Shown one piece after another: positions 41,142 through 62,750 of a stretch of DNA of 64,000 bases; the stretch's first letter is position 1; each line of letters begins with the position of its first letter. The notes below the pieces were generated by a model. That model made no database searches and was not told the DNA's origin. It was given only the letters and a program-made list of their open reading frames with translations. The stretch covers positions 4,521 through 68,520 of the forward strand of contig CADEFN010000012.1 in NCBI GenBank assembly GCA_902826615.1. The letters are read 5' to 3'. This DNA is from an uncultured Gemmatimonadota bacterium. Lineage in GTDB: Bacteria > Gemmatimonadota > Gemmatimonadetes > Gemmatimonadales > Gemmatimonadaceae. The position numbers and the translations under genes were made by a program.

Positions 41142-41996
41142 TTAGAGTCCGGTGGTTACTTTCGCCGTCTTCGTCCGTGCCGTCAACTGCTCCGCGTAGG
41201 CGGCGGGCGTCAGCCCGCCGAGTCCCTTCTTCGGACGTTCTTCCTTGTACTCACGCCGCCAGGCCTCGATGACGACCTGCGCATGCGCCAGGCTCGTGAA
41301 CCAGTGCTCGTTCAGGCACTCGTCGCGGAAGCGACCATTGAAGGACTCGATGTAGGCATTCTGCGTCGGCTTGCCTGGTTCGATCAGCCGCAGCGTCACG
41401 CCGCGGTCGTGCGCCCAGGTCAGCATGGCGCGCCCGCAGAACTCCGATCCGTTGTCCGTACGCAGCACCTGGGGCAGGCCGCGCGTGACGGCGAGCGTAT
41501 CCAAGACGCGAGTGACGGGCAGGCCGCCCAGCGCCCGCGCTGGCACGACGGCCACCGCTTCCGTGGTCGCGTCGTCGACGATCGTCAGGCACTTCAACAC
41601 GCGCCCCTCGGCCGTGCGATCGAACACGAAGTCGGCCGACCACACCTCGTTCGGCGCCTGCGGTCGAGCGAGCGGCTGCCGATCGGCGAGTGGCACCTTC
41701 TTGCGGCGCCGGCGCCGGACCTGCAGCCGCGCTTCCGCGTAGAGGCGGTCGACCCGCTTGTGATTGACCCGTCGACCTTCTTGCCGCAGCTTCAGGTAGA
41801 TCATGCCGGCCCCGTACCGGCGGTGGCGGTGCGCCAGGGCGGCGATGCGATCGCGCAGCGTGGGATCGGGATCCGGGCGTGGGACGTAGCGAAACGCCGA
41901 GGCGCTCATGTGGACGACCTGCAGTCCGTGCCGCTCGCTGAGCCCCCGCGTGACCATCTCCCGCACCACCTCGCGTCGAGCCGGTGCGGTCACCAC
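41142..41996 (-). CDS. IS3-family transposase OrfB (DDE/rve integrase core), expressed by -1 frameshift from orfA
   Basis: Sequence: ...[33 protein letters not shown]...[57 protein letters not shown]. This carries the D, D and E catalytic residues and the K/R signature. Confidence 0.85.
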
Positions 41997-48285: not shown

Positions 48286-49497
48286 GTGGCGCTAAATCTG
48301 TACAGGCGGCACCGGGAAGCCTGCGAAGCCGGCCGCGCGTTTGACGCCCGCTCGGGCGAGTTCGAAGAGCGGAAGCGCGACTGGAAGCGCTGCGGCTGCC
48401 TGATTTTCGCCTCGGGAACGCTCGGCCGGAAGTTCTCCCGCCGCTCCCTCAACACCGACGACTGGGCGAAGGCTCGCGAGCTCGCCGGCGAGTTCGAGAA
48501 GGCCGACTCATGGGCCGACCGCCCAGCTGCGCCGCCGCCCCCAGAGCCCGTCGCTGAGAAGCCGCGCGTTACGCTCGAGGCGGCCTCCGAAGCCTACCTC
48601 GCGAACCGCGAGGCTGCCGGGCTGAAGCCTCCCACCCTCCGCAAGTACGACACGTTCGCCAAGCAGATCGGGGCCTTCGCCGACGACCTAGGCTACGTGA
48701 TGCTCGATCAGTTCACGCCTGGCGACATCGATCGATTCTGGGCGAACTGGAAGCTCGGCCCGAGGGCTAAGGGCAAGCGCCTGACGACACTGCGGGCGTT
48801 CTTCCGCTTCTGTGTCAACCGGAAGTGGATCCCCGAGTCGCCGGTCAGTTCCGACATCAAGGCGCCTGTCGGCTCCAGCCGCGGCGCCAACAAGGCGCCC
48901 TTCACTGACGACGAGATCAACCGGATCATCGCGGCCTGTGAAAGGGTCAAGGTTGAGTGGAAGAACGAGACCGGGACTGGCGAGTGGACCGGTGAGGACC
49001 TGAAGGATCTGATCTGGCTGATGCTCTACACCGGGTTTCGCATCTCGGATGCAACCCTGTTCAGCATCAAGCGGCTGCACGGCGACCAAGTGTTCGTCCG
49101 TGCGAAGAAGAACGGCGGGGACGTCTTTGCGTACGTGCCCGACTGGCTGGCGGAACGGCTTGCGGTGCGCGCCAAGCGATTCGGTCAGCGGCCGTTCATC
49201 GTGGCGCGCTCCGATCGGCTCGAGACGATCACGAACATCTGGCGCCGACGCCTTGCCAAGGCGTTCGCCGCGGCAGGCCCGTTCGAGGAGACGCCGACGC
49301 CTCATCGATTGCGCCACACGTTCGCCCGCATCCTCCTACAGAAGGGCGTTCCCGTCGCCGACGTGGCCGACCTGCTCGGCGACGACGAGAAGACGGTGCG
49401 TGACCACTACGCCCGGTGGGTGCCAGAGAGGCAGGAGCGGCTGACCAGGATCCTCAAGGACGCCTTCAGCGAACGGCCGAAGCCGCCCACCAATTGA
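48286..49497 (+). CDS. int: tyrosine-type site-specific integrase
   Basis: 403 aa. The catalytic domain has ...GFRISDATLF (Arg I), HRLRHTFARILLQKGVPVADVADLLGD (H-x-x-R) and VRDHYARW (Tyr). It sits next to the tRNA-like att unit. Confidence 0.9.
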   Translation: MALNLYRRHREACEAGRAFDARSGEFEERKRDWKRCGCLIFASGTLGRKFSRRSLNTDDWAKARELAGEFEKADSWADRPAAPPPPEPVAEKPRVTLEAASEAYLANREAAGLKPPTLRKYDTFAKQIGAFADDLGYVMLDQFTPGDIDRFWANWKLGPRAKGKRLTTLRAFFRFCVNRKWIPESPVSSDIKAPVGSSRGANKAPFTDDEINRIIAACERVKVEWKNETGTGEWTGEDLKDLIWLMLYTGFRISDATLFSIKRLHGDQVFVRAKKNGGDVFAYVPDWLAERLAVRAKRFGQRPFIVARSDRLETITNIWRRRLAKAFAAAGPFEETPTPHRLRHTFARILLQKGVPVADVADLLGDDEKTVRDHYARWVPERQERLTRILKDAFSERPKPPTN

Positions 49498-49773: not shown

Positions 49774-49971
49774 ATGCCAACCTCTAAACACCGTATTTCC
49801 ATCAGTTTAGCTGACACCGAGTACTCCGAGCTGTCTGACGCTGCAGAGAACAGCAGAGTGTCGATGGCTTGGCTTGCGCGGCAAGCCCTGATCGAATTCC
49901 TCGAGCGGCAGCGGAAGAAACGCGGGCCCGCCCCTGTTCCAGTGCAGACGCTGCCGAGGGCTGCGCGATGA
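49774..49971 (+). CDS. ribbon-helix-helix (CopG/Arc-like) protein
   Basis: 65 aa from ATG 49774. KHRISISLADTEYSELSDAAENSRVSMAWLARQALIEFLER is a beta strand plus two helices. The stop overlaps the methyltransferase start (ATGA). Confidence 0.55.
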   Translation: MPTSKHRISISLADTEYSELSDAAENSRVSMAWLARQALIEFLERQRKKRGPAPVPVQTLPRAAR

Positions 49972-51971
49972 CTGCCATCAAGCAAACTGGCGGCGCAGCA
50001 GAACCCGAATCGGTCGCGATGAACCCGAGCCGGTACGACCACATTCCGCGGTCCGGCCTGATCAAGATGCTCCAGGACTACGACGACGCCTTGCTCGAAG
50101 CAGGCCAGGACGGCATCGTCATGAGCTACACGGGCCGGACGGCCCCATGGCAGATCATCCGTCTCGTCAAGCCGAAACTCAGTCGCATCATAAAAAAGCT
50201 CTCGATTGGGGCCGAGAAGCTTCAATCCGAGAACGAGATCTGGGACGGAGAGAATCTCTCGGCGATGGTCACGCTCTACAAGTATCGCGGCCAAGTCGAT
50301 CTCATTCTCACCGACCCGCCGTACAACACGGGCGAGGATTTCCGCTACAACGACAAGTGGGACAAGGACCCGAACGATCCCGACCTCGGCGACCTCGTGT
50401 CGAAGGACGACGGATCGCGCCACAGTAAATGGCTGCGTTTCATGACTCCGCGCCTCTGGATGATGCGCGAGATGCTGAGACCCGGTGGCGTCATTGCGAT
50501 TTGCATCGACCATCGCGAACTGTTCCGTCTGGGCATGCTGATGGACGAAATCTTCCACGAGGAGAACCGTCTCGCCCTGATCAACTGGCAGAAAACGACG
50601 CCAAAGAACCAGGCGACGCACGTATCAATCACCACCGAGTACATCCTCGTTTATGCCAAATCCGCAGCTGTGGCGAAGACTGGCGAGACAAGCCGCTCCG
50701 CGCTAGCAGAAGCCAGATTCCACAATCCCGACAAAGACCAGATCAGCGACTGGAAACGTGGCGACCTGACCGGCAAGGGGCGCAGCAAGTTGGCGGACTA
50801 CGCCGTCCAGTCGCCAGTCACGGGCGAGTTCTGCGACCCCGGCGATCGCCACTGGGCCAACAAGCGCTCACAGATGAAGACGTGGCTGGAGGAGTGGGAC
50901 GTCCACTACGAGGACTTCGATCTCAAGGACGGCCGCGGCATCGCCTTGGCGCTCAAGGGCTGGGGAGCCGCCAAGACGAAAGAGAAGCGCGAACAGGTTC
51001 TCGGCAAGGCGCGGAAGGCCGCGCTGAAGCGCTGGGAGGCGGGCAACTGGCCCTATCTGTATTGGGGACTCGACGCCCATCAGAAGCCGGTCTGCAAGCA
51101 GCGTCGCGCTGTCATCAAACAGGGTGCAGTCCCGACATCGTTCTGGGTGGACGAAGATGAAGGCCCCCTCAAGCTGGATGACGTGTCCTGGCTGCGCCAC
51201 ATGAGCGGTCGCTCACGCGACGGCGTCGAAGAACTGGACCACGTCGTCGGCAAAGGACACGGATTCGACACCGTCAAGCCGCTGAAGCTGTTCAAGAAGA
51301 TCATCCAGATATGGTGTCACCCGAACGGCATCGTGATGGACCCATTCGCGGGCTCCGGCACGAGCGCCCACGCCGTCCTTGATCTCAACAACGAGACCGG
51401 CGCCACCCGGCGGTTCGTGTTGATTGAACAAGGCAACACGGAGAAGGGCGACCACTACGCGAAGACGCTGACCGCAGACCGTATTCGCAGGGTCATCACT
51501 GGCGAGTGGGCCGCTGGGAATCGCGGACCCCTACCCGGCGGTTTCCGTTTCATGGAATTGAAGCGCGAGAAGATCGATGCTGATGCGGTAAAGGCACTCG
51601 CCCGCGAAGAGATGATCGATCTCCTGCTCACAAGTTACTGGGACAAGGCAGAGCGCGCGAAGTCCTACCTGCGCCGCCTGCCAGCCGGCAAGCACAAGCA
51701 CTTGTTCGCCGTGAATCCGAAGGATGAAGGATTCTTCCTGGTGTGGCAGTCGTCAGACCAGCCGTCCGTTCTGAGCCGCGATGTGTTCAAGGAGATCGTC
51801 GCCGAATCGAAGGCGGCGGCGCTCAAGTCCCGCTACCACGTGTACGCGTCAATTGCGCCTTACACCGGAGCGGGAATCGAGTTCTACAAGATTCCCGACA
51901 AAGTCCTGGAGCATATCGGCTTCAACCCGCGATCGGACGCGTTCAACAACGAGGATAACGCGGTTGCTTGA
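49968..51971 (+). CDS. mod: type III restriction-modification DNA methyltransferase (Mod, beta-class N6A/N4C)
   Basis: 667 aa. Motif IV LILTDPPYNTGEDFRYND precedes motif I IVMDPFAGSGTSAHAV (beta-class order). A large variable region lies between them. It is followed by Res. Confidence 0.85.
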   Translation: MTAIKQTGGAAEPESVAMNPSRYDHIPRSGLIKMLQDYDDALLEAGQDGIVMSYTGRTAPWQIIRLVKPKLSRIIKKLSIGAEKLQSENEIWDGENLSAMVTLYKYRGQVDLILTDPPYNTGEDFRYNDKWDKDPNDPDLGDLVSKDDGSRHSKWLRFMTPRLWMMREMLRPGGVIAICIDHRELFRLGMLMDEIFHEENRLALINWQKTTPKNQATHVSITTEYILVYAKSAAVAKTGETSRSALAEARFHNPDKDQISDWKRGDLTGKGRSKLADYAVQSPVTGEFCDPGDRHWANKRSQMKTWLEEWDVHYEDFDLKDGRGIALALKGWGAAKTKEKREQVLGKARKAALKRWEAGNWPYLYWGLDAHQKPVCKQRRAVIKQGAVPTSFWVDEDEGPLKLDDVSWLRHMSGRSRDGVEELDHVVGKGHGFDTVKPLKLFKKIIQIWCHPNGIVMDPFAGSGTSAHAVLDLNNETGATRRFVLIEQGNTEKGDHYAKTLTADRIRRVITGEWAAGNRGPLPGGFRFMELKREKIDADAVKALAREEMIDLLLTSYWDKAERAKSYLRRLPAGKHKHLFAVNPKDEGFFLVWQSSDQPSVLSRDVFKEIVAESKAAALKSRYHVYASIAPYTGAGIEFYKIPDKVLEHIGFNPRSDAFNNEDNAVA

Positions 51972-54327
51972 GCTCAAGGTCTTCCAGAGCGAAAGCGCGA
52001 AGCTGATTGCTGATCGCTACGCCCTCTTCGCAAATCACCCGGACCGGCCGCGCAAGGGAAGCAGGCCGCGACCATTTTTCCAGGCGCTCTCCGCTCTCAC
52101 GGGTGCAGGCAAGACGCCGATCCTCGCGCAAGCCGTTTCGATCATGCGCGGGCATTTCGGGACCGAGCCGATCATTCTTTGGATGTCGAAGGCGCGCTCC
52201 GTCGTTGCGCAGACCTACGCAAACTTTTCGGGCGGTAAGTACAGCGAGCTTGTTGACGGGTTCCGTGTCATCAACATCCAGAACATCAATCCGGAACTCA
52301 TCGCAGACGGCACGACGCCGCTTCTGCTCATGACCACCACAGGCCTGTTCAACAACAGGGAGCAGTCTGAAGGTGCACTCAACATTTATAAGAAAGACAA
52401 CGATCTCTTCGGAGACAAGTCGCCCTGGGAGCGGCTCATTGAGCGCCTCGGGGGCGCAAAGCGGCGCCCGCTGGTCATCGTTTACGACGAAGGCCACAAT
52501 CTTTCCGAGCAGCAGACCGAGCTGCTTGCAGAACTTGAACCTGACGCCTATTTGTTGGCGAGTGCCACGCTCAAGTTGCCAGCAAATTTCCAGAAGTCCG
52601 TTATCCAGCCGATCAAGCTGTGGGTCGAAGAGTCGGAAGTTGCCGATCCGTTCGTCCGCCTCGGCGCAGTCGACGAAAATGGCCGGCCTGAAGCCGAGCG
52701 ATTCATAACGACGGCCGTCAGCAGCGAGAAGGTCGTCGCGGCGCAACTCGTCAAGAAAGCCATTCAGTTCGACGGCACCACGGCGCCGATGGAGAGCTGC
52801 CTTGACGACCTAGTGAACCGGCTCGACCTGCTGAGGGAAGAGATTGCGCTGCGCGGTCTCGACTTCACTCCGAAGGTGATCTACGTCTGCCGAACCAACA
52901 TCACCGACGAAGGTGACAAGGACGACGCCAGCAAGCCGTTTATCCATCGGAAGGCGCCCCCCATCAGGATCTGGCGCTACCTCGTCGAGGAGAAGGGCGT
53001 TTCGCCGAAGGACATCGCGATCTACGCGAACCTGACCTTCGGGGCCGGCAACAAGCCGGACGAGGTGAATCTCTTCTCGAAAGGTGAAAGCGACTTCGAC
53101 GAATTCCACGGAGGCGATTACGAGCACATAATCTTCAATCTGTCGCTCCAGGAAGGATGGGACGATCCCGCCTGTTATCTCGCGTACATAGACAAGAGCA
53201 TGGGCTCGGCGATCCAGGTCGAGCAGATCATCGGTCGCGTCCTGCGCCAGTACGGCGCCGCGCACTATGAGAACCCACTTCTGAACAGCGCGCATTTCTT
53301 CCTGCGCGTCGACAAGGAAAGCGTTTTTGCCGACGCCATTCAGAAGGTCAAAACGAAGCTGCAATCCGAGGGTGCGCCCATTGAGATTTCGGCCAGCTTC
53401 GGAGCCAAGGGCGGAGGAGCGGAAGACCTCAAACCGAAGGACGACCTCGGCGTCGAGCTTCACCACATCTTCGTCGACTCAGAAGCTGCTCGCACGCGCA
53501 TCGGCGAGATCATCGACGAGTTTCCGCAGTTCACCGAAGGCGACGTCAACACCGTCGGCGAAGCGCATGCGGCGACGCAAATCGTCGACCTGGAGTCGCT
53601 AGGCAAGGATGCCGCGGCGGCCGAGTGGACGACCGACGGCCATACGAATCCGGTCAGGCTGCGCTGGCTCGCGAACACCGCGATCAAGTCACGATCCTCA
53701 CGCGCGCTCGCCGTCATCGACCTCAAGAACCAGAAGTTCGACGTCCGGGTGCAGCTCCAGAGCAAAGCCGACAAGCTCACGGACAAGCTCGCGAGCGAAG
53801 TGGTCGAAGCGTTCTATGATCACTCGGACCTCGTGTACGAGAGCATCAAGCCGTTCCAGTTTGGGACGCTGCGAGTGCCCAAAGCTGCTCCCCTCTTTAC
53901 GAACGGCCTTTACGAGCGCTACACCGGATTCAACAAGTTTGAACTAGCATTCGCGAAGGCGCTCGATGGGAACGGCGCTCTCTGGCACCGCAACCCTTCG
54001 GGCGGCGGATTCTTCATCCCGCTGCTGTCTGAAGGCGACTCGGCATCGTTTTATCCGGACTTCATTGTCTGGATGAAGGGTCTGGTGTACTGCGTCGACA
54101 CCAAGGGCGGCCATTTACTGTCCGACGCCGTCGCACGCAAACTGTTCGACATCAAGGAAGACGGCAAGACGAAGCTCCAGGTGCGTTTTGTAACGGAAGG
54201 CAAACAGGAGCAGCTTCGCGGCAAAGTCATTAAGGGCGGTTTCACCGTCTGGAAGATGAAATCAGGATCGCCGACATCCATCCACGTGACCAGCCTCGAG
54301 AAGGCCGTTACGGAATCGCTGAAGTAG
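51964..54327 (+). CDS. res: type III restriction enzyme Res subunit (SF2 helicase plus PD-(D/E)xK nuclease)
   Basis: The probable TTG start at 51964 overlaps the mod stop. The track ORF starts at 51781, inside mod. Motif I: ALTGAGKTPIL. Motif II: LVIVYDEGHNL. Motif III: LLASATL. Motif VI-like: QIIGRVLRQ. C-terminal nuclease: FYPDFIVWMKGLVYCVDTKG. Confidence 0.85.
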   Translation: MLELKVFQSESAKLIADRYALFANHPDRPRKGSRPRPFFQALSALTGAGKTPILAQAVSIMRGHFGTEPIILWMSKARSVVAQTYANFSGGKYSELVDGFRVINIQNINPELIADGTTPLLLMTTTGLFNNREQSEGALNIYKKDNDLFGDKSPWERLIERLGGAKRRPLVIVYDEGHNLSEQQTELLAELEPDAYLLASATLKLPANFQKSVIQPIKLWVEESEVADPFVRLGAVDENGRPEAERFITTAVSSEKVVAAQLVKKAIQFDGTTAPMESCLDDLVNRLDLLREEIALRGLDFTPKVIYVCRTNITDEGDKDDASKPFIHRKAPPIRIWRYLVEEKGVSPKDIAIYANLTFGAGNKPDEVNLFSKGESDFDEFHGGDYEHIIFNLSLQEGWDDPACYLAYIDKSMGSAIQVEQIIGRVLRQYGAAHYENPLLNSAHFFLRVDKESVFADAIQKVKTKLQSEGAPIEISASFGAKGGGAEDLKPKDDLGVELHHIFVDSEAARTRIGEIIDEFPQFTEGDVNTVGEAHAATQIVDLESLGKDAAAAEWTTDGHTNPVRLRWLANTAIKSRSSRALAVIDLKNQKFDVRVQLQSKADKLTDKLASEVVEAFYDHSDLVYESIKPFQFGTLRVPKAAPLFTNGLYERYTGFNKFELAFAKALDGNGALWHRNPSGGGFFIPLLSEGDSASFYPDFIVWMKGLVYCVDTKGGHLLSDAVARKLFDIKEDGKTKLQVRFVTEGKQEQLRGKVIKGGFTVWKMKSGSPTSIHVTSLEKAVTESLK

Positions 54328-54424: not shown

Positions 54425-54850
54425 CTAGGCCGAAGTACGGACAGGCTCGGTTGGGGCAATCTGCCCAGCCAGCTCCTGAATCTGGCGTAGGAGCGCCGAA
54501 CGCGGCGCCACGAGATCGAGAGCTACCACGCGCAATCGCTTGCCCGCATGGACTACGACATGCTGTGCAGCGCCTGTGCCTTCGTCGGCGGCGTAAACGA
54601 GGGTTCCACCGGGCAGGTCGAGCGCTACGGCATACGCTAAGAGTTCGTACAGGTCCGCGTTCCGATAGCCGCCCACCGGCAAGCGCTTGTACTTTGCGTC
54701 GCCGACCCAAACGATTCGACGGCCCTCCAGCAGACACAGATCGGGCTTCAGCGGTACGACGCCTGCCTCATCAAGATGCACCGTGCGCGGCCGATCTGGG
54801 AACCGCGCGCTCTCGAGGCCGATGGCGGCCCGAAGAGGATAGTCAACATT
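54425..54850 (-). pseudogene. C-terminal fragment of a McrC-like PD-(D/E)xK nuclease gene
   Basis: LKPDLCLLEGRRIVWVGDAKYKRLPVGGYRNADLYELLAYAVALDLPGGTLVYAAD matches the McrC C-terminal pattern (P-D ... D-x-K-Y-K ... Y-Q/E-hydrophobic-x-x-Y). The N-terminal ~250 aa expected for McrC and any McrB gene are absent. Confidence 0.5.
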
Positions 54851-55164
54851 AACGGTTAAGGGGGTTGGGTGACGAAACGCCCGTTGTCGGACCCTGTGCC
54901 CCAGGCGCTCCGCGCTCTCCCTCCCCGTTCGCACGGCCGATCGTAGCGCCATCGACTATGCGGCCGCCGCCAGCGGAGGCTTGCAGCTCGCGTCTGGCGG
55001 CGAGGCGTCGAAAGCGCTGGAAGAAGACTATGTCCGCATGGTCGAGGACGGGCTGCATCTGGAGGATGCCGAGCCGTTCGAGGGTCTCATGGCGCGCTGC
55101 GCCGATATCGCCGAGCGGGCTAATCTAATGCGGAGCGGGATAGAGAAACGGGGAGGAGAGGCGT

Positions 55165-56946
55165 GTGCGTATATCGCGGGTGAAGATTAGCAACTTCGCC
55201 AATTTCTCGGCGATCGACGTCGAGACCGGCGAGAACATCGTCATTGTCGGCGAGAACAAGGTCGGCAAAAGCAACTTCGTCCGGGCGCTGCAGCTAATCC
55301 TCGACCCCGGCCTTTCCGAACGCGACCGCCAGCTTGGGCTCGAGCAGTTCTGGGACGGGCTGGGCGAAGACAAGCTGGGCGAGACCATCGAGGTCGCGGT
55401 CGAACTGACCGACTTCACGGACGACCCGCGGCTGATGGCGCATCTCAATGATTGCGTGGTCGATCCTGGTCCGCCGATGGTCGCGAGGCTCACATACCGC
55501 TTTCAGCCGAAGGTCAATCTCGGCCGCGATCCCGAGAGCCTTGCAGACTATGAGTACATCATCTTCGGCGGTGACGATCCCGAGATGTCGATCGGCGCCT
55601 CGGTGCGGCGAATGCTGCCGCTCGACGTGCAGGTTGCGCTGCGCGATGCCGACAAGGACTTGTCGAACTGGCGCAACTCGCCGCTGAGGCCTTTGATCGA
55701 GGAACTTGCAACGTCCCTCAACGAGGACGCACGCGAAGAGATTCAGGAGCAAGTTAACGAGGCGCAGGCCGAGCTGGTTGGTCACGCCGAGGTGGTGGCG
55801 ACGGCTGAGCGGATAAGCGCGCGGCTGATCGCCATTGCGGGCGAGCAGCATGCCGTCCCGTTGACGCTCGGTCTCGCGCCGACGCGGGTCGATGCGCTGC
55901 TGCGTAGTCTCCGCCTGCTGATCGACAGTGGCGCGCGCGGTATCCCCGACGCCAGCCTTGGCACCGCCAATCTGATCTTCTTGGCGCTCAAGAGCCTTGA
56001 GCTTGATCGTCTCGTGGAGGACGGCGAGCGCGATCACACCTTTTTCGTCGTCGAAGAGCCGGAGGCACATCTCCACCCACATGTCCAGCGCCTCGTCTAT
56101 CGCTATTTCCTGGGCGGTGGCGGAGACGACGAGGAGACGCCGCCGCTCACGACGATCCTGACGACGCACTCGCCGCATATCGCCAGCGTCACGCCGATCC
56201 GCTCGATCGTGCTGCTGCGGCATGACGCGGAGGCGGATGCGACGATCGCGATTTCGACCGCCGCAGCGCCGCTCGACGAGCGCGACGAGGCAGATCTTCA
56301 GCGCTACATCGATGTGAGTCGCGGCGAGATATTCTTTGCCCGGGGCGTCATCCTGGTCGAGGGCGATGCGGAGCGATTTCTGGTGCCGGCCTTTGCCGAG
56401 GCGCTGGACATTCCGCTCGACATGCTGGGCATTACCGTGTGCTCGGTCGGCGGCACGAATTTCACGCCCTACGTCAAGCTGCTGGGCCCGGAGGGCCTCA
56501 ACATCCCGCACGTTATTCTGACGGACCGGGACCCGAATGGGGAACACCCGCCGTTCGTCCGCCGCCGCTTGATCAAGGTACTGGAGTTACTCGAAGACGA
56601 GGTGGACTACGGGCCACTGGACGCCGACGCAGTGATCGCCCGTGCCACGCCGTTCGGCTATTTCGTGAACGGCAATACGCTCGAGCCGGAGCTCTTCACT
56701 GGCGGGCTAGCCGAGGCGATGCAGGACGTCATTGACCAGGAGCTGGCGATCAACCAGGCCACGCGCAACCGCGTTCAGGGTTGGGTCGACGATCCCGACA
56801 CGCTTGATGAGGAGCGCCTGCTCGCGCTGATCGAGCGAATTGGCAAAGGGCGTTTCGCGCAGGCGCTCGCGCCGCATGCCAGCGACGACAATTGCCCGGA
56901 CTATATCCGGCGAGCGCTGGAGCATATCCGCCATGCCGTTGCGTAG
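55165..56946 (+). CDS. gajA: OLD-family ATPase/TOPRIM nuclease, GajA-like (Gabija component A)
   Basis: 593 aa. The N-terminus is VRISRVKISNFANFSAIDVETGENIVIVGENKVGKSNF (ABC-type Walker A). FFVVEEPEAHLHP is the Walker B/D-loop. TOPRIM: GVILVEGDAERFLVPAFAE ... HVILTDRDPNG. A UvrD-like helicase gene follows with a 14-nt overlap. Confidence 0.8.
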   Translation: MRISRVKISNFANFSAIDVETGENIVIVGENKVGKSNFVRALQLILDPGLSERDRQLGLEQFWDGLGEDKLGETIEVAVELTDFTDDPRLMAHLNDCVVDPGPPMVARLTYRFQPKVNLGRDPESLADYEYIIFGGDDPEMSIGASVRRMLPLDVQVALRDADKDLSNWRNSPLRPLIEELATSLNEDAREEIQEQVNEAQAELVGHAEVVATAERISARLIAIAGEQHAVPLTLGLAPTRVDALLRSLRLLIDSGARGIPDASLGTANLIFLALKSLELDRLVEDGERDHTFFVVEEPEAHLHPHVQRLVYRYFLGGGGDDEETPPLTTILTTHSPHIASVTPIRSIVLLRHDAEADATIAISTAAAPLDERDEADLQRYIDVSRGEIFFARGVILVEGDAERFLVPAFAEALDIPLDMLGITVCSVGGTNFTPYVKLLGPEGLNIPHVILTDRDPNGEHPPFVRRRLIKVLELLEDEVDYGPLDADAVIARATPFGYFVNGNTLEPELFTGGLAEAMQDVIDQELAINQATRNRVQGWVDDPDTLDEERLLALIERIGKGRFAQALAPHASDDNCPDYIRRALEHIRHAVA

Positions 56947-58750
56947 CGTCAGCAATGCCTATCTCGCGCAGGCGGCCGACCTGGCCGGCAATCCAGGTCA
57001 GCAAGCAGCCTATGACTCCACGGGCAACTGCGTGGTGTTGGCGGGACCGGGCAGCGGCAAGACCAAAACGCTGGTGCTCAAGCTTGCGCGGATCATGGCG
57101 GAGGACGTGCGTGCGCCGCGCGGCGCGGCCTGCATCACCTATAGCCAGGAGTGCGCGCGCGAACTGACGCGGCGCCTGGAGCGGCTCGGTCTGCGCGAGG
57201 CATCTAACCTCTTCATCGGAACGGTGCATGGCTTCTGCCTGCGACACCTGCTCATGCCCTATGGGCGGCTTGCGAATCTGCCGGCGCCATTCCCGCTTTC
57301 GGTTGCCACGCAGCGGCAAAGCGACCAGGCGATGCGGCGGGTTGGGGACCGGCTGTTCGGAGTCGGCCATCCCAACAAGCCGATGGACCTCGGGCGGCAT
57401 CGGCGATCGGTTTTGGACCGGACATCAATCATCTGGAACGACCAAGCGGAGCTAGCCGCATGGGCGGAAGAGTACGAGGCGGAACTGCGGCGGCTGGGTC
57501 TCATCGACTTCGACGACTTGGTGATCTTCGGACAGCGGCTGGTCTCGGAGCATGACTGGGTGCTGCCGCTGCTCCAGGCGAAATTGCCGGTGCTCGCGGT
57601 CGACGAGTATCAGGACCTCGGCGTGGCGCTGCATCGCATCGTCACGCGGGTGGCGTTCGATGGCGGTGTCCGGCTCTTTGCGGTCGGGGATCCGGATCAA
57701 TCGATTTACGGATTTACCGGTGCGGACGGAGCTCTGCTTCAGGAGCTGGGCGTGCGCGACGATGTCGAGCGCGTCCAACTCCAACTCAACTACCGCTCAG
57801 CGTCGCGCATCGTCAAGGCATCGGAATTGGCATTGGGCGAGGCGCGCGGCTACGAGTCGAACGACCCTGAGCGGCAGGCGGTCATCGAATTCGTGCAGTG
57901 CGACGACGGGCTTGAGGGCCAGGCGGCGCATGCGGTCGCCGAGATCATTCCTGAGGCGCTCGCGGCCAAGCCGGGCCGCGCGCTTGGCGATATCGCCATT
58001 CTCTATCGAGACTATCGGGCCGGCGACGTGGTGGCGGAAGCCGTGGCGGCGGCCGGCCTCGACTTCGTCCGTGTCGACACCGCGGCGCCTTATCGCAAAG
58101 TCGCACTCACCAGCTGGATCGAGGATTGCGCGGCATGGTGCGCGGGCGGCTGGCGCGAGGCCCGGCCGCAACTGCGCGGCCTGCTAGATCGCTGGCTCGG
58201 ATTTCATCGCACACGGATTCCCGACGCGCAGGCGCGAGAAGAAGCGCAGCGCCTGACGGAGCTTCTCTGGTCGCTTCGGGTCGAAGAGGGGCGCGCCCGG
58301 GAATTTGTGGCCGGCGTGAGAGCCGGAATGCTCGATGCGTTGATGGCGGCTGAACCGAGTCTCGCCGACCAGCGCGAGCAGGTTGATCGCATGTCCGCCG
58401 CGCTCGCTATCGGGCGCGCGCTCGCAGATCTTGACCTGGCGAGCCTTGGGGGGCGCGATGGCTCGCCGCTGCATCTGAACCTGTTGACGCTGCACTCTGC
58501 GAAGGGGTGCGAATATGATGTCGTGATCATGGTCGGCCTCGATCTCGGGAGCCTGCCCTGGCGCAATGAGCAGCCAGCGGTCCGCCGCGAGAGCCGGCGA
58601 TTGTTCTATGTCGGCCTCACGCGTGCCCGCGACGAGATCCATATGCTCTATTCCGGTTATGTGGACACGGCCCGGGGGCGGATGAACTGGGGGCGCTCTC
58701 CGTTCCTGGATGAACTTGAAGCCCGAATGGAGGAGGCCGAGGGCGAATGA
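56933..58750 (+). CDS. gajB: UvrD/PcrA/Rep-like SF1 helicase, GajB-like (Gabija component B)
   Basis: 605 aa from ATG 56933. Motifs: [14 protein letters not shown] (I), [11 protein letters not shown] (II), [16 protein letters not shown] (III), [16 protein letters not shown] (V) and [16 protein letters not shown] (VI). Confidence 0.85.
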
Positions 58751-59667
58751 CCATGCTGTCATTTCGCGAGGCCCAGACCGTCGAAGACCTAGCCGACCTG
58801 CTCTACGATGTCCTGCCCGGAAGCGGAAACAGCAGGACCGCCTTTCCGCTCGCGGCCGCGCAGGCTGGCGTTGGCGACCTATGGGTCCCAGGCAGCAAGC
58901 GACCTGCAATCGTCCAGCTTCTGACCGCGACGCTCGAACAAGGCCGCTCAAGTTTTGCCGAGCTGATCGTGGCGATCGTCCGCCAGGCGATGACCTACCG
59001 GCGCGGCAAGGGTAACCCTCTGACTCGCGCAGAGATCGATCGACTGAACAGCCTACTTCCTGGTGTGGAGTTCAGGATTCCAGAGTTGCTGGATCCAGGT
59101 TTTCTGAGCAGTTTCAGACGTGGGAATGCAGAGGAGGCTGCGCCGCAATCGACAGCGGCGTTGAGTGCGGCTAAGGCGCAAGAACTCGCCGCGCTGCTCA
59201 TCGAGATCACCAAGCTGAATCCGCAGGCGCGGGGCCTGCGTTTCGAGGGCTTTCTCAACGAGTTGTTCGCCGGATTTGGGCTTGCGCCGCGCGGCGCCTT
59301 CCGGCTTGTGGGGGAGCAGATCGACGGTAGTTTCAGGCTGAACGGCCAGACCTATCTGGTAGAGGCAAAATGGCATGGTCCGCAGATCGGCTTCGCCGAC
59401 CTCATGACCTTTTCAGGTAAGGTCAGTGGAAAGGCATCGTGGTCGCGCGGGCTGTTCGTGAGCAGTTCCGGGTTCACCGCTGACGGCCTCGAGGCATTCT
59501 CGCGCGGGCGGCAGACCAACCTGATCTGCGCTGATGGACTCGACCTCTATGAAGTGCTCTCGCGCCAGGCTTCCCTAATCCAGGTTCTCGAAGCGAAGGA
59601 GCGCCGGGCGGCCGAGACGAACCTGGCGTTTGTCGCCGTGCGTGACCTCAATCTTGGCGGAAACTGA
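58747..59667 (+). CDS. Mrr_cat-like PD-(D/E)xK restriction endonuclease domain protein with unknown N-terminal domain, coupled to gajB
   Basis: 306 aa. The start overlaps the gajB stop (ATGA). The C-terminal half is [65 protein letters not shown]...[10 protein letters not shown]. This shows E-x-x-D-G ... (V/L)-E-A-K-W, the Mrr-type core. Confidence 0.65.
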
Positions 59668-59777
59668 AGCGCACCTCTTGGGCCCAAGGCGATGGTGCAA
59701 CGACCTGTTGCACAAATTCGCCGTCGGACCGGATCGGCGGGTCAGAGGTATAGCGTCGCGGCATCGATACCGACCTC

Positions 59778-62061: not shown

Positions 62062-62439
62062 ATGCGCGAGAGTCTTCTGCGTCGGCGTGGGCCTGAGAGA
62101 TACAGCGATCCGAAACCGCAGCGTAGCACAAGCCTCGCGTGTTCGACGGGCCCCCGTTCGCACCGCCGAGTCCGGGTCAGCCGTACTGTCGCCGTCCTCA
62201 CGGCCGCCCTGCTGCTGCCGGCCGCGGCGCTTGCGCAGTCCCCATGGGAACGCGCGGCCGGCAACCTCGAGCAAACGTTCACCGGGCCGCTGGCGCGGTC
62301 ATTGGCACTTGTTGCGATCGTTCTCGGCGGCCTGATGTTCATGTTCGGCGAGGCCGGGGCAAAGCGTCAGATCAGCGGCATCGTGTTCGGTGGCGGCTTG
62401 GCCCTGTTCGCGGCGCAGTTCCTGACCTGGCTGTTCTGA
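62062..62439 (+). CDS. virB2: T4SS pilin TrbC/VirB2 (second element)
   Basis: The C-terminal 66 aa match 59 of 66 residues of the first copy (...TGPLARSLALVAIVLGGLMFMFGEAGAKRQISGIVFGGGLALFAAQFLTWLF). The start is uncertain. Confidence 0.8.
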   Translation: MRESLLRRRGPERYSDPKPQRSTSLACSTGPRSHRRVRVSRTVAVLTAALLLPAAALAQSPWERAAGNLEQTFTGPLARSLALVAIVLGGLMFMFGEAGAKRQISGIVFGGGLALFAAQFLTWLF

Positions 62440-62450
62440 GGCGATCCGCC

Positions 62451-62750
62451 ATGCTTGCCAGCCAGCCGCCCTCGTTCCGCCCGGTATACAAGGCGCTCCA
62501 CCGCCGTCTGACGGTCTGGGGTGTCGAGCGGCGCCTGTTCTTTCTGGCACTGCTGATGGGCGCCGCGACGTTCAACCTTTTCTACTCATTCCTCGCCGGC
62601 CTGCTGATGTTCGGCGGCTTGTACGGCTTCGCCGCTTGGGCGACCACGCGCGACCCGGACATGCTCCAGATCCTCCTGTCGTCGTCTCGGCTCCGCCGTC
62701 GCTTCGACCCGGCGAAGCACGAACGCCAGGACATCGAGGTGACCGCATGA
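62451..62750 (+). CDS. virB3: T4SS VirB3/TrbD (second element)
   Basis: 99 aa from ATG 62451, the tail of track ORF 62139..62750. Sequence: YKALHRRLTVWGVERRLFFLALLMGAATFNLFYSFLAGLLMFGGLYGFAAWATTRDPDMLQIL. Confidence 0.75.
   Translation: MLASQPPSFRPVYKALHRRLTVWGVERRLFFLALLMGAATFNLFYSFLAGLLMFGGLYGFAAWATTRDPDMLQILLSSSRLRRRFDPAKHERQDIEVTA

Follow-up and report, generated by a model that had tools for sequence, protein, structure and literature searches.

The gajA-gajB-P3 operon described here lies in a 64,000-nucleotide (nt) stretch of contig CADEFN010000012.1 from an uncultured Gemmatimonadota bacterium (the window, to which all coordinates refer; loci in other genomes are labelled L###), and it probably joins two defence modules in one transcription unit, namely a canonical Gabija anti-phage system encoded by gajA and gajB and, appended to its operon, a probably autonomous Mrr-type nuclease encoded by the third gene, which we named P3. 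The three genes follow one another tightly, head to tail, on the plus strand (Table 1). A first-pass annotation had described them as a three-gene Gabija variant; Gabija itself and the Mrr-type nuclease are confirmed, and the genes are syntenic and form a cassette, but a role of P3 as a Gabija component is not supported, and P3 is most likely a separate defence gene rather than a third Gabija subunit.

We propose a mechanism with two modules. First, the GajAB complex would nick or cleave DNA on sensing infection, as published for Gabija. Second, P3 would act as a self-sufficient PD-(D/E)xK nuclease of the Mrr type, its helical N-terminal domain recognising a target or trigger and its C-terminal domain cutting DNA in the manner of the type IV (Mrr/MspJI-like) restriction enzymes. 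Lacking a promoter region of its own, P3 would be expressed by read-through or translational coupling from the preceding operon, and gajA, gajB and P3 would have become a co-inherited cassette in this lineage.

The gajA-gajB pair is a canonical two-gene Gabija, and this call is fully supported. GajA matches the PADLOC model PDLC00070 (E = 9.1e-235, residues 1-592 on model positions 1-595 of 596), contains the Pfam domains AAA_15, AAA_21 and OLD-like_TOPRIM, and keeps intact the Walker A motif GENKVGKS at residue 29 together with EGDAE at 399 and DRD at 454 (TOPRIM). GajB matches PDLC00117 (E = 1.4e-232, residues 5-602 on model positions 2-603 of 604), contains the UvrD-helicase and UvrD_C domains of Pfam, and has intact helicase motifs, GPGSGKT at 38 and DEYQD at 224. 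With both models matched over their full length, the Gabija pairing proposed in the first pass is confirmed, as is the 14-nt overlap of the OLD-type and helicase genes, which is read directly from the sequence at 56933-56946. The same annotation had regarded the 605-aa (amino acid) GajB as unusually long; the best-fitting model, however, itself has 604 positions and is matched end to end, and 605 residues is therefore a normal length for this GajB subfamily.

The junction between gajB and P3 is equally tight. The ATG at 58747 overlaps the gajB stop codon as ATGA, in agreement with the first-pass description, but a second in-frame ATG stands at 58753, and it is to this position that the start of nearly all P3 homologues corresponds (MLSF/MMSF). 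Since the homologues begin there and a Shine-Dalgarno-like run precedes both ATGs, translation may not begin at the ATGA overlap, and the length of P3 could be either 306 or 304 residues. Whichever start is taken, the gap to gajB is at most 2 nt, and in other genomes 3-6 nt lie between the gajB stop and the P3 ATG. Simple scans of 54.3-60.4 kb found no promoter or terminator signals above the shuffled background.

The P3 protein carries an Mrr_cat-like nuclease domain, as had been read from its motifs: Pfam Mrr_cat (PF04471) matches residues 163-266 at 27.6 bits, the gathering score being 21, and both EQIDG (189-194) and VEAKW (205-209) are present. An AlphaFold2 (AF2) model with a predicted local distance difference test score (pLDDT) of 91, obtained from an alignment of 59 sequences with identities as low as 33%, comprises an all-helical N-terminal domain, a low-confidence linker and an alpha/beta PD-(D/E)xK domain (residue limits in Table 1); an earlier AF2 run on a shallow alignment, whose 26 sequences share 82-94% identity with the P3 of the window, gave a pLDDT of 55 and was set aside. 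In the model, the C-terminal domain has its beta-strands at residues 191-208, 234-239 and 259-263, and its alpha/beta core, of the restriction-endonuclease-like type, bears the predicted catalytic D...(D/E)xK residues. All 59 family sequences keep D193 and E206, and the close clade keeps K208 without exception. Foldseek returned weak matches to the C-terminal domain only, in the PDB to the nuclease domain of MspJI (the best), AF1548, EndoMS, FokI and the Rpb5 fold, and in BFVD to phage proteins named 'restriction endonuclease'. The substrate of P3 would be DNA, cut by this domain.

The N-terminal domain of P3 has conserved LPGSG (23-27), W46 and GSKxPA (49-54) elements and gave no significant match in Pfam, PDB profile searches, Foldseek (PDB, BFVD) or PHROGs. 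When 25 diverse N-domains were searched against Pfam at E <= 5, only insignificant hits to EAD7 (E = 0.048, two of the 25) and AbiJ_NTD4 (E = 0.083) appeared, and an Mrr_N winged-helix domain was absent both from this search and from the all-helical model. The first pass had allotted about 150 residues to an N-terminal domain of no known kind; the searches agree that it resembles nothing in the libraries, while its modelled extent is residues 1-122, the linker following at 123-140. A homotypic, EAD-like adaptor shared with GajA or GajB was considered for this domain and rejected (hhalign probability at most 2%). P3 belongs to no NCBIfam or PHROGs family and, among the PADLOC models, has no match to PDC-S02 at E <= 0.01; a 35%-identical relative, P0215, matches PDC-S02 weakly through its C-terminal part (E = 1.1e-8). 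The family is large: its close homologues number more than 2100, and clustering at 50% identity gives 2402 clusters with E <= 1e-3, 245 of them at E <= 1e-30. Its C-terminal domain is found behind other N-termini too.

Together, gajA, gajB and P3 are a discrete 4.5-kb cassette that has spread as a unit. By blastn, homology with about 30 alphaproteobacterial genomes starts at 55165, the gajA start, or at 54934, within an AbiEii relic about 230 bp upstream, and ends at 59654-59668, the P3 stop, with no common flanks; the hosts of the cassette belong to the Hyphomicrobiales, Sphingomonadales and Acetobacteraceae and include one Silanimonas metagenome-assembled genome. Directly upstream stands AbiEi/AbiEii in at least ten loci and IetAS in at least seven, and the sequence 3' of P3 differs between most loci. 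The cassette is discrete because its homology is bounded at both ends while the sequences on either side differ. In the 23 cassettes with all three genes intact, the ratio of nonsynonymous to synonymous substitution rates (dN/dS) is 0.062 for GajA, 0.039 for GajB and 0.048 for P3, and all three genes are under strong purifying selection; in the same cassettes, the pairwise protein distances among GajA, GajB and P3 correlate at 0.87-0.91. Among 55 genomic loci found through P3, gajA-gajB lies directly upstream in 27, and in three more a RES/Xre pair stands in between (30 of 55 in total), so the third gene is indeed syntenic in other genomes.

Two other ideas on the placement of P3 were rejected or left without support. 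P3 is not the backbone or anchor gene of a mobile-element hotspot, since the downstream sequence is not conserved across most loci; and for an integron-type attC cassette, which the promoter-less state of P3 and its co-orientation with the upstream operon had suggested, no common inverted repeat is evident downstream. In 17 loci, with and without Gabija (those given are L003, L008-L011, L013, L014, L016, L019-L021, L023, L033, L063, L064 and L072), the P3 stop is followed at a distance of 15-130 nt by a conserved non-coding stretch of about 100 nt. It reads GATGACGGTATAG ... CGTAGYGTAG ... GGTCTGACGG, with a related CTGACGGTACTTTGCTGAAG in other loci and only a faint echo, GGCGATGGTGCAACGACC, in the window; candidates for its role are a small RNA, a terminator region and a recombination site.

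The sharp boundaries of this one cassette and the correlated distances also fit a true three-component Gabija, wherein P3 would have been recruited in this clade as an extra effector or back-up for GajAB, and might cleave DNA after its unwinding by GajB or nicking by GajA, or be triggered once GajAB has been blocked by an anti-Gabija protein such as Gad1. Further in its favour are the gajB-P3 junction, with at most 2 nt or a 4-nt overlap, and the presence of P3 in most members of the GajB clade of at least 83% identity. We nevertheless consider it quite unlikely, as the same P3 is found behind at least four unrelated operons and embedded in a fifth type, and as Gabija and P3 each occur without the other.

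P3 is not confined to Gabija loci. On the same strand it follows RmrT-RmrA (RosmerTA) directly in eight loci, a RES/Xre toxin-antitoxin pair in L036-L039, HmaB-HmaC in L040 and a type XI retron reverse transcriptase in L034, and it stands beside a divergent QatABCD in five to seven loci. In L115 and L122 the order is RmrA-P3-GajA-GajB, with P3 attached to RosmerTA; in one place a 35%-identical homologue is embedded as HmaA-P3-HmaB-HmaC, and in two conjugative rhizobial plasmids relatives of the P3 C-terminal domain lie between AbiE and Hachiman. In every same-strand context 3-17 nt separate the upstream stop from the P3 ATG. Across contexts the N-terminal domain is 69-89% and the C-terminal domain 77-94% identical, while the linker is 18-56% identical between loci; because both domains hardly change from one context to another, their sequences argue against partner-specific contacts. 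As an observation beside these, a 677-aa GAP1-N1 protein, from a GTPase-associated conflict system, is encoded at 4493-6526 of L036 ahead of the RES/Xre pair and P3, and may be a further partner context.

Each module also persists alone. A metagenome sample centred on GajB includes approximately 24 loci of the clade with at least 83% GajB identity, of which 11 have an intact P3, nine a P3 pseudogene and four or five no P3. The gene occurs in none of the approximately 30 loci of the clade with 72-77% identity; in this sample P3 is thus not conserved throughout the GajAB subfamily. The nine loci of the closest clade carry a deleted or truncated P3 beside intact gajAB, some with internal deletions followed by a 1115-aa NERD-STAND gene and others truncated at about residue 76. 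In L058-L061, L069 and L102 a 70-aa in-frame relic of P3 (residues ~1-40 joined to ~185-196) stands after gajB and is followed by the 1115-aa NERD and STAND-NTPase gene (a 530-aa open reading frame, ORF, in L069), which shows that modules are replaced at the place behind gajB. Conversely, seven loci (L007, L011, L019, L020, L023, L033 and L050) retain only 55-80 nt of the gajB 3' end before P3; the P3 of L050 is truncated, that of the other six intact. Four of these Gabija-less copies (L019, L020, L023 and L033) have dN/dS of 0.045-0.083 at dS up to 0.83, and the P3 of the RosmerTA context 0.051; no loss of selective constraint after the loss of gajAB is visible in the four copies, and, because dN/dS is so low at such dS, P3 has been kept by selection after Gabija was lost. 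The best reading of these sequences is that P3 does not need Gabija and that Gabija does not need P3.

The proposal that P3 adds an effector or sensor to Gabija is therefore unsupported: other operons share P3, neither of its domains varies with the partner, hhalign finds no region common to P3 and GajA or GajB, the sister GajB clade is entirely without P3, P3 pseudogenes are tolerated beside intact gajAB, and Gabija-less P3 remains under purifying selection. The same data bear on the idea that P3 is a fortuitous neighbour without a defence role, for instance a restriction gene in decay or a nuclease with a housekeeping role in the mobile element. Its failure to match any curated defence model would accord with this, but dN/dS is about 0.05 in every context with the catalytic residues intact, all P3 neighbourhoods examined consist of defence or toxin-antitoxin systems, and the unconserved flanks argue that P3 is not a backbone gene of the element, which makes such an origin highly improbable.

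A different possibility is that P3 is a generic terminal 'plug-in', an abortive-infection nuclease or addiction toxin that does not recognise foreign DNA. It would be silenced by its N-terminal domain or by low coupled expression, released by a common infection signal such as DNA ends or nicks or the shut-off of host transcription, and would back up or stabilise whichever defence operon precedes it. That P3 always comes last, without a promoter and 3-17 nt away from upstream operons of very different kinds, that it is extremely conserved across contexts (at least 70% amino acid identity), and that it has neither a partner methylase nor a recognisable DNA-modification reader domain are all in keeping with this. 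However, no antitoxin-like partner or regulatory gene is conserved beside P3, and its Mrr_cat architecture and size of about 304 residues parallel E. coli Mrr, a direct restriction enzyme. We rate the plug-in nuclease as unlikely; direct restriction of foreign DNA and a triggered abortive nuclease are both compatible with the sequence, and the data do not separate them.

Returning to a canonical Gabija with an appended autonomous nuclease, several points weigh against it. P3 would be a defence gene by guilt by association, matching no PADLOC model and giving only a weak mREase_IV hit (E = 0.0037). Its Foldseek matches to solved nucleases are weak as well (best E = 1.7e-3; TM score ~0.3 over the whole model), and the sensing of a target or trigger by its N-terminal domain is a guess, since that domain has no structural or sequence analogue. 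Moreover, the three genes evolve in concert and move as a unit within the closest GajB clade, with a junction as tight as that of gajA and gajB, and functional cooperation of P3 with Gabija in this lineage is compatible with the data, nothing in which requires such synergy.

The Gabija genes add nothing new here, and the novelty resides only in the uncharacterised P3 family, which is large, strongly conserved and unnamed in the libraries searched. In at least five unrelated operons of defence or toxin-antitoxin genes, P3 recurs at the end without a promoter of its own, and, found by its neighbours, it is a well-supported candidate for a new single-gene defence system. A bolder view, which we regard as decidedly unlikely, is that the family supplies a second-stage effector which is portable and in functional cooperation with Gabija, RosmerTA, Hma, retrons and RES toxins alike, its N-terminal domain sensing a common product such as nicked or unwound DNA or the inhibition of the upstream system; if true, P3 would be a widespread 'plug-in' nuclease family of the 2402 clusters. 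The locus is a clear example of how independent defence modules fuse into one transcription unit and then spread as a cassette, and it cautions that tight overlap and synteny within one clade are insufficient for calling a gene a subunit of the neighbouring system.

Table 1. Features of the gajA-gajB-P3 locus and its surroundings in the window.
Feature	Position	Strand	Remarks
IS3-family transposase	41142-41996	-	upstream
Tyrosine recombinase	48286-49497	+	upstream
Mod of type III-like restriction-modification pair	49869-51971	+	N6_N4_Mtase, 700-aa ORF
Res of type III-like pair	51781-54327	+	ResIII helicase, 848-aa ORF
McrC-like fragment	54425-54952	-	175-aa ORF; matches the Pfam McrBC profile only at its end (~68 positions, 251-318 of 318)
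AbiEii/AbiGii toxin gene, 3' remnant	54903-55133	+	~last 77 codons; tblastn with L014 AbiEii, 64% identity, residues 261-337
gajA	55165-56946	+	OLD-family ABC-type ATPase and TOPRIM nuclease, 593 aa; stop TAG 56944-56946
gajB	56933-58750	+	UvrD-like SF1 helicase, 605 aa; ATG 56933, TGA 58748-58750
P3	58747 or 58753-59667	+	two-domain Mrr-type nuclease gene; 306 aa (ATG 58747) or 304 aa (ATG 58753)
P3 N-terminal all-helical domain (model)	58747-59112	+	aa 1-122; pLDDT mostly 80-98
P3 linker, variable, probably disordered	59113-59166	+	aa 123-140; pLDDT <50 at residues 127-133
P3 C-terminal PD-(D/E)xK (Mrr_cat) nuclease domain (model)	59167-59664	+	aa 141-300; E167, D193, E206, K208
TrbC/VirB2 and VirB3 genes	62062-62750	+	downstream; a sigma-70-like gene is also downstream of P3

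The operon is set in what is probably a decaying defence island carried as cargo by an integrative, probably conjugative, element, a view that rests on the recombinase and transposase genes upstream and the TrbC/VirB2 and VirB3 genes, of type IV secretion, downstream; no tRNA gene was found in the whole 64 kb. The Mod and Res ORFs as listed overlap by about 190 nt, so that the true Res start probably lies further downstream, and the G+C content is 0.59-0.60 over 49869-54327 against 0.65-0.70 over much of the window. The McrC-like ORF, judged by the part of the profile it retains, is probably a truncated gene, another decayed defence gene. An intact AbiEi-AbiEii pair precedes gajA in at least ten related cassettes, and AbiEii genes overlap or adjoin the plasmid hits H23-H25; the AbiEii relic of the window and the intact pairs of its relatives indicate that the ancestral array was AbiE-Gabija-P3. 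In L003, L004, L008, L010 and L022 (760-4375), an AAA ATPase (336 aa) and a subtilase (850 aa) are encoded directly upstream of gajA, a pair whose architecture fits the IetAS defence system, giving four- to five-gene same-strand IetAS-GajAB-P3 arrays.

Compared with known Gabija, the locus has the same gene order, overlapping ORFs, full-length PADLOC matches and intact ATPase, TOPRIM and helicase motifs, and it differs in nothing essential: the appended downstream gene is the sole oddity, and the longer GajB subfamily is already modelled by PADLOC. No description of a GajA-GajB-Mrr operon was found in the literature searched. The published non-canonical gene set called 'Type II Gabija' consists of GajB and a MazF-like GajC (PMC13069673). 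There, the protein with the MazF-like fold replaces GajA, whereas the present locus retains GajA and has an additional gene for an unrelated nuclease of the Mrr type; the identification of P3 with GajC was accordingly rejected, and P3 should not be given that name.

The closest likeness of P3 itself is to the type IV nucleases. With E. coli Mrr and the MspJI-type enzymes it shares a single polypeptide of about 300 residues, in which a C-terminal Mrr_cat PD-(D/E)xK domain stands behind an N-terminal recognition domain, and the nuclease domain of MspJI is among its best structural matches; however, the P3 N-terminal domain is predicted to be all-helical, and is not an Mrr_N winged helix, an SRA-like domain or any other Pfam or PDB domain. 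E. coli Mrr, too, adjoins another restriction system. P3 would also fit the pattern known from type IV nucleases within BREX, BrxU/GmrSD (Picton 2021, as cited in PMC12881386), and from the nuclease candidates embedded in Hma (bioRxiv 10.1101/2024.01.29.577857), where the gene of an independently acting nuclease lies inside a multi-gene defence operon or at its end and gives complementary protection; a 35%-identical P3 homologue is itself embedded in an Hma system. The family is nonetheless a different one, since P3 is an Mrr_cat protein rather than a DUF262/DUF1524 or HNH nuclease and matches no HEC or PDC model.

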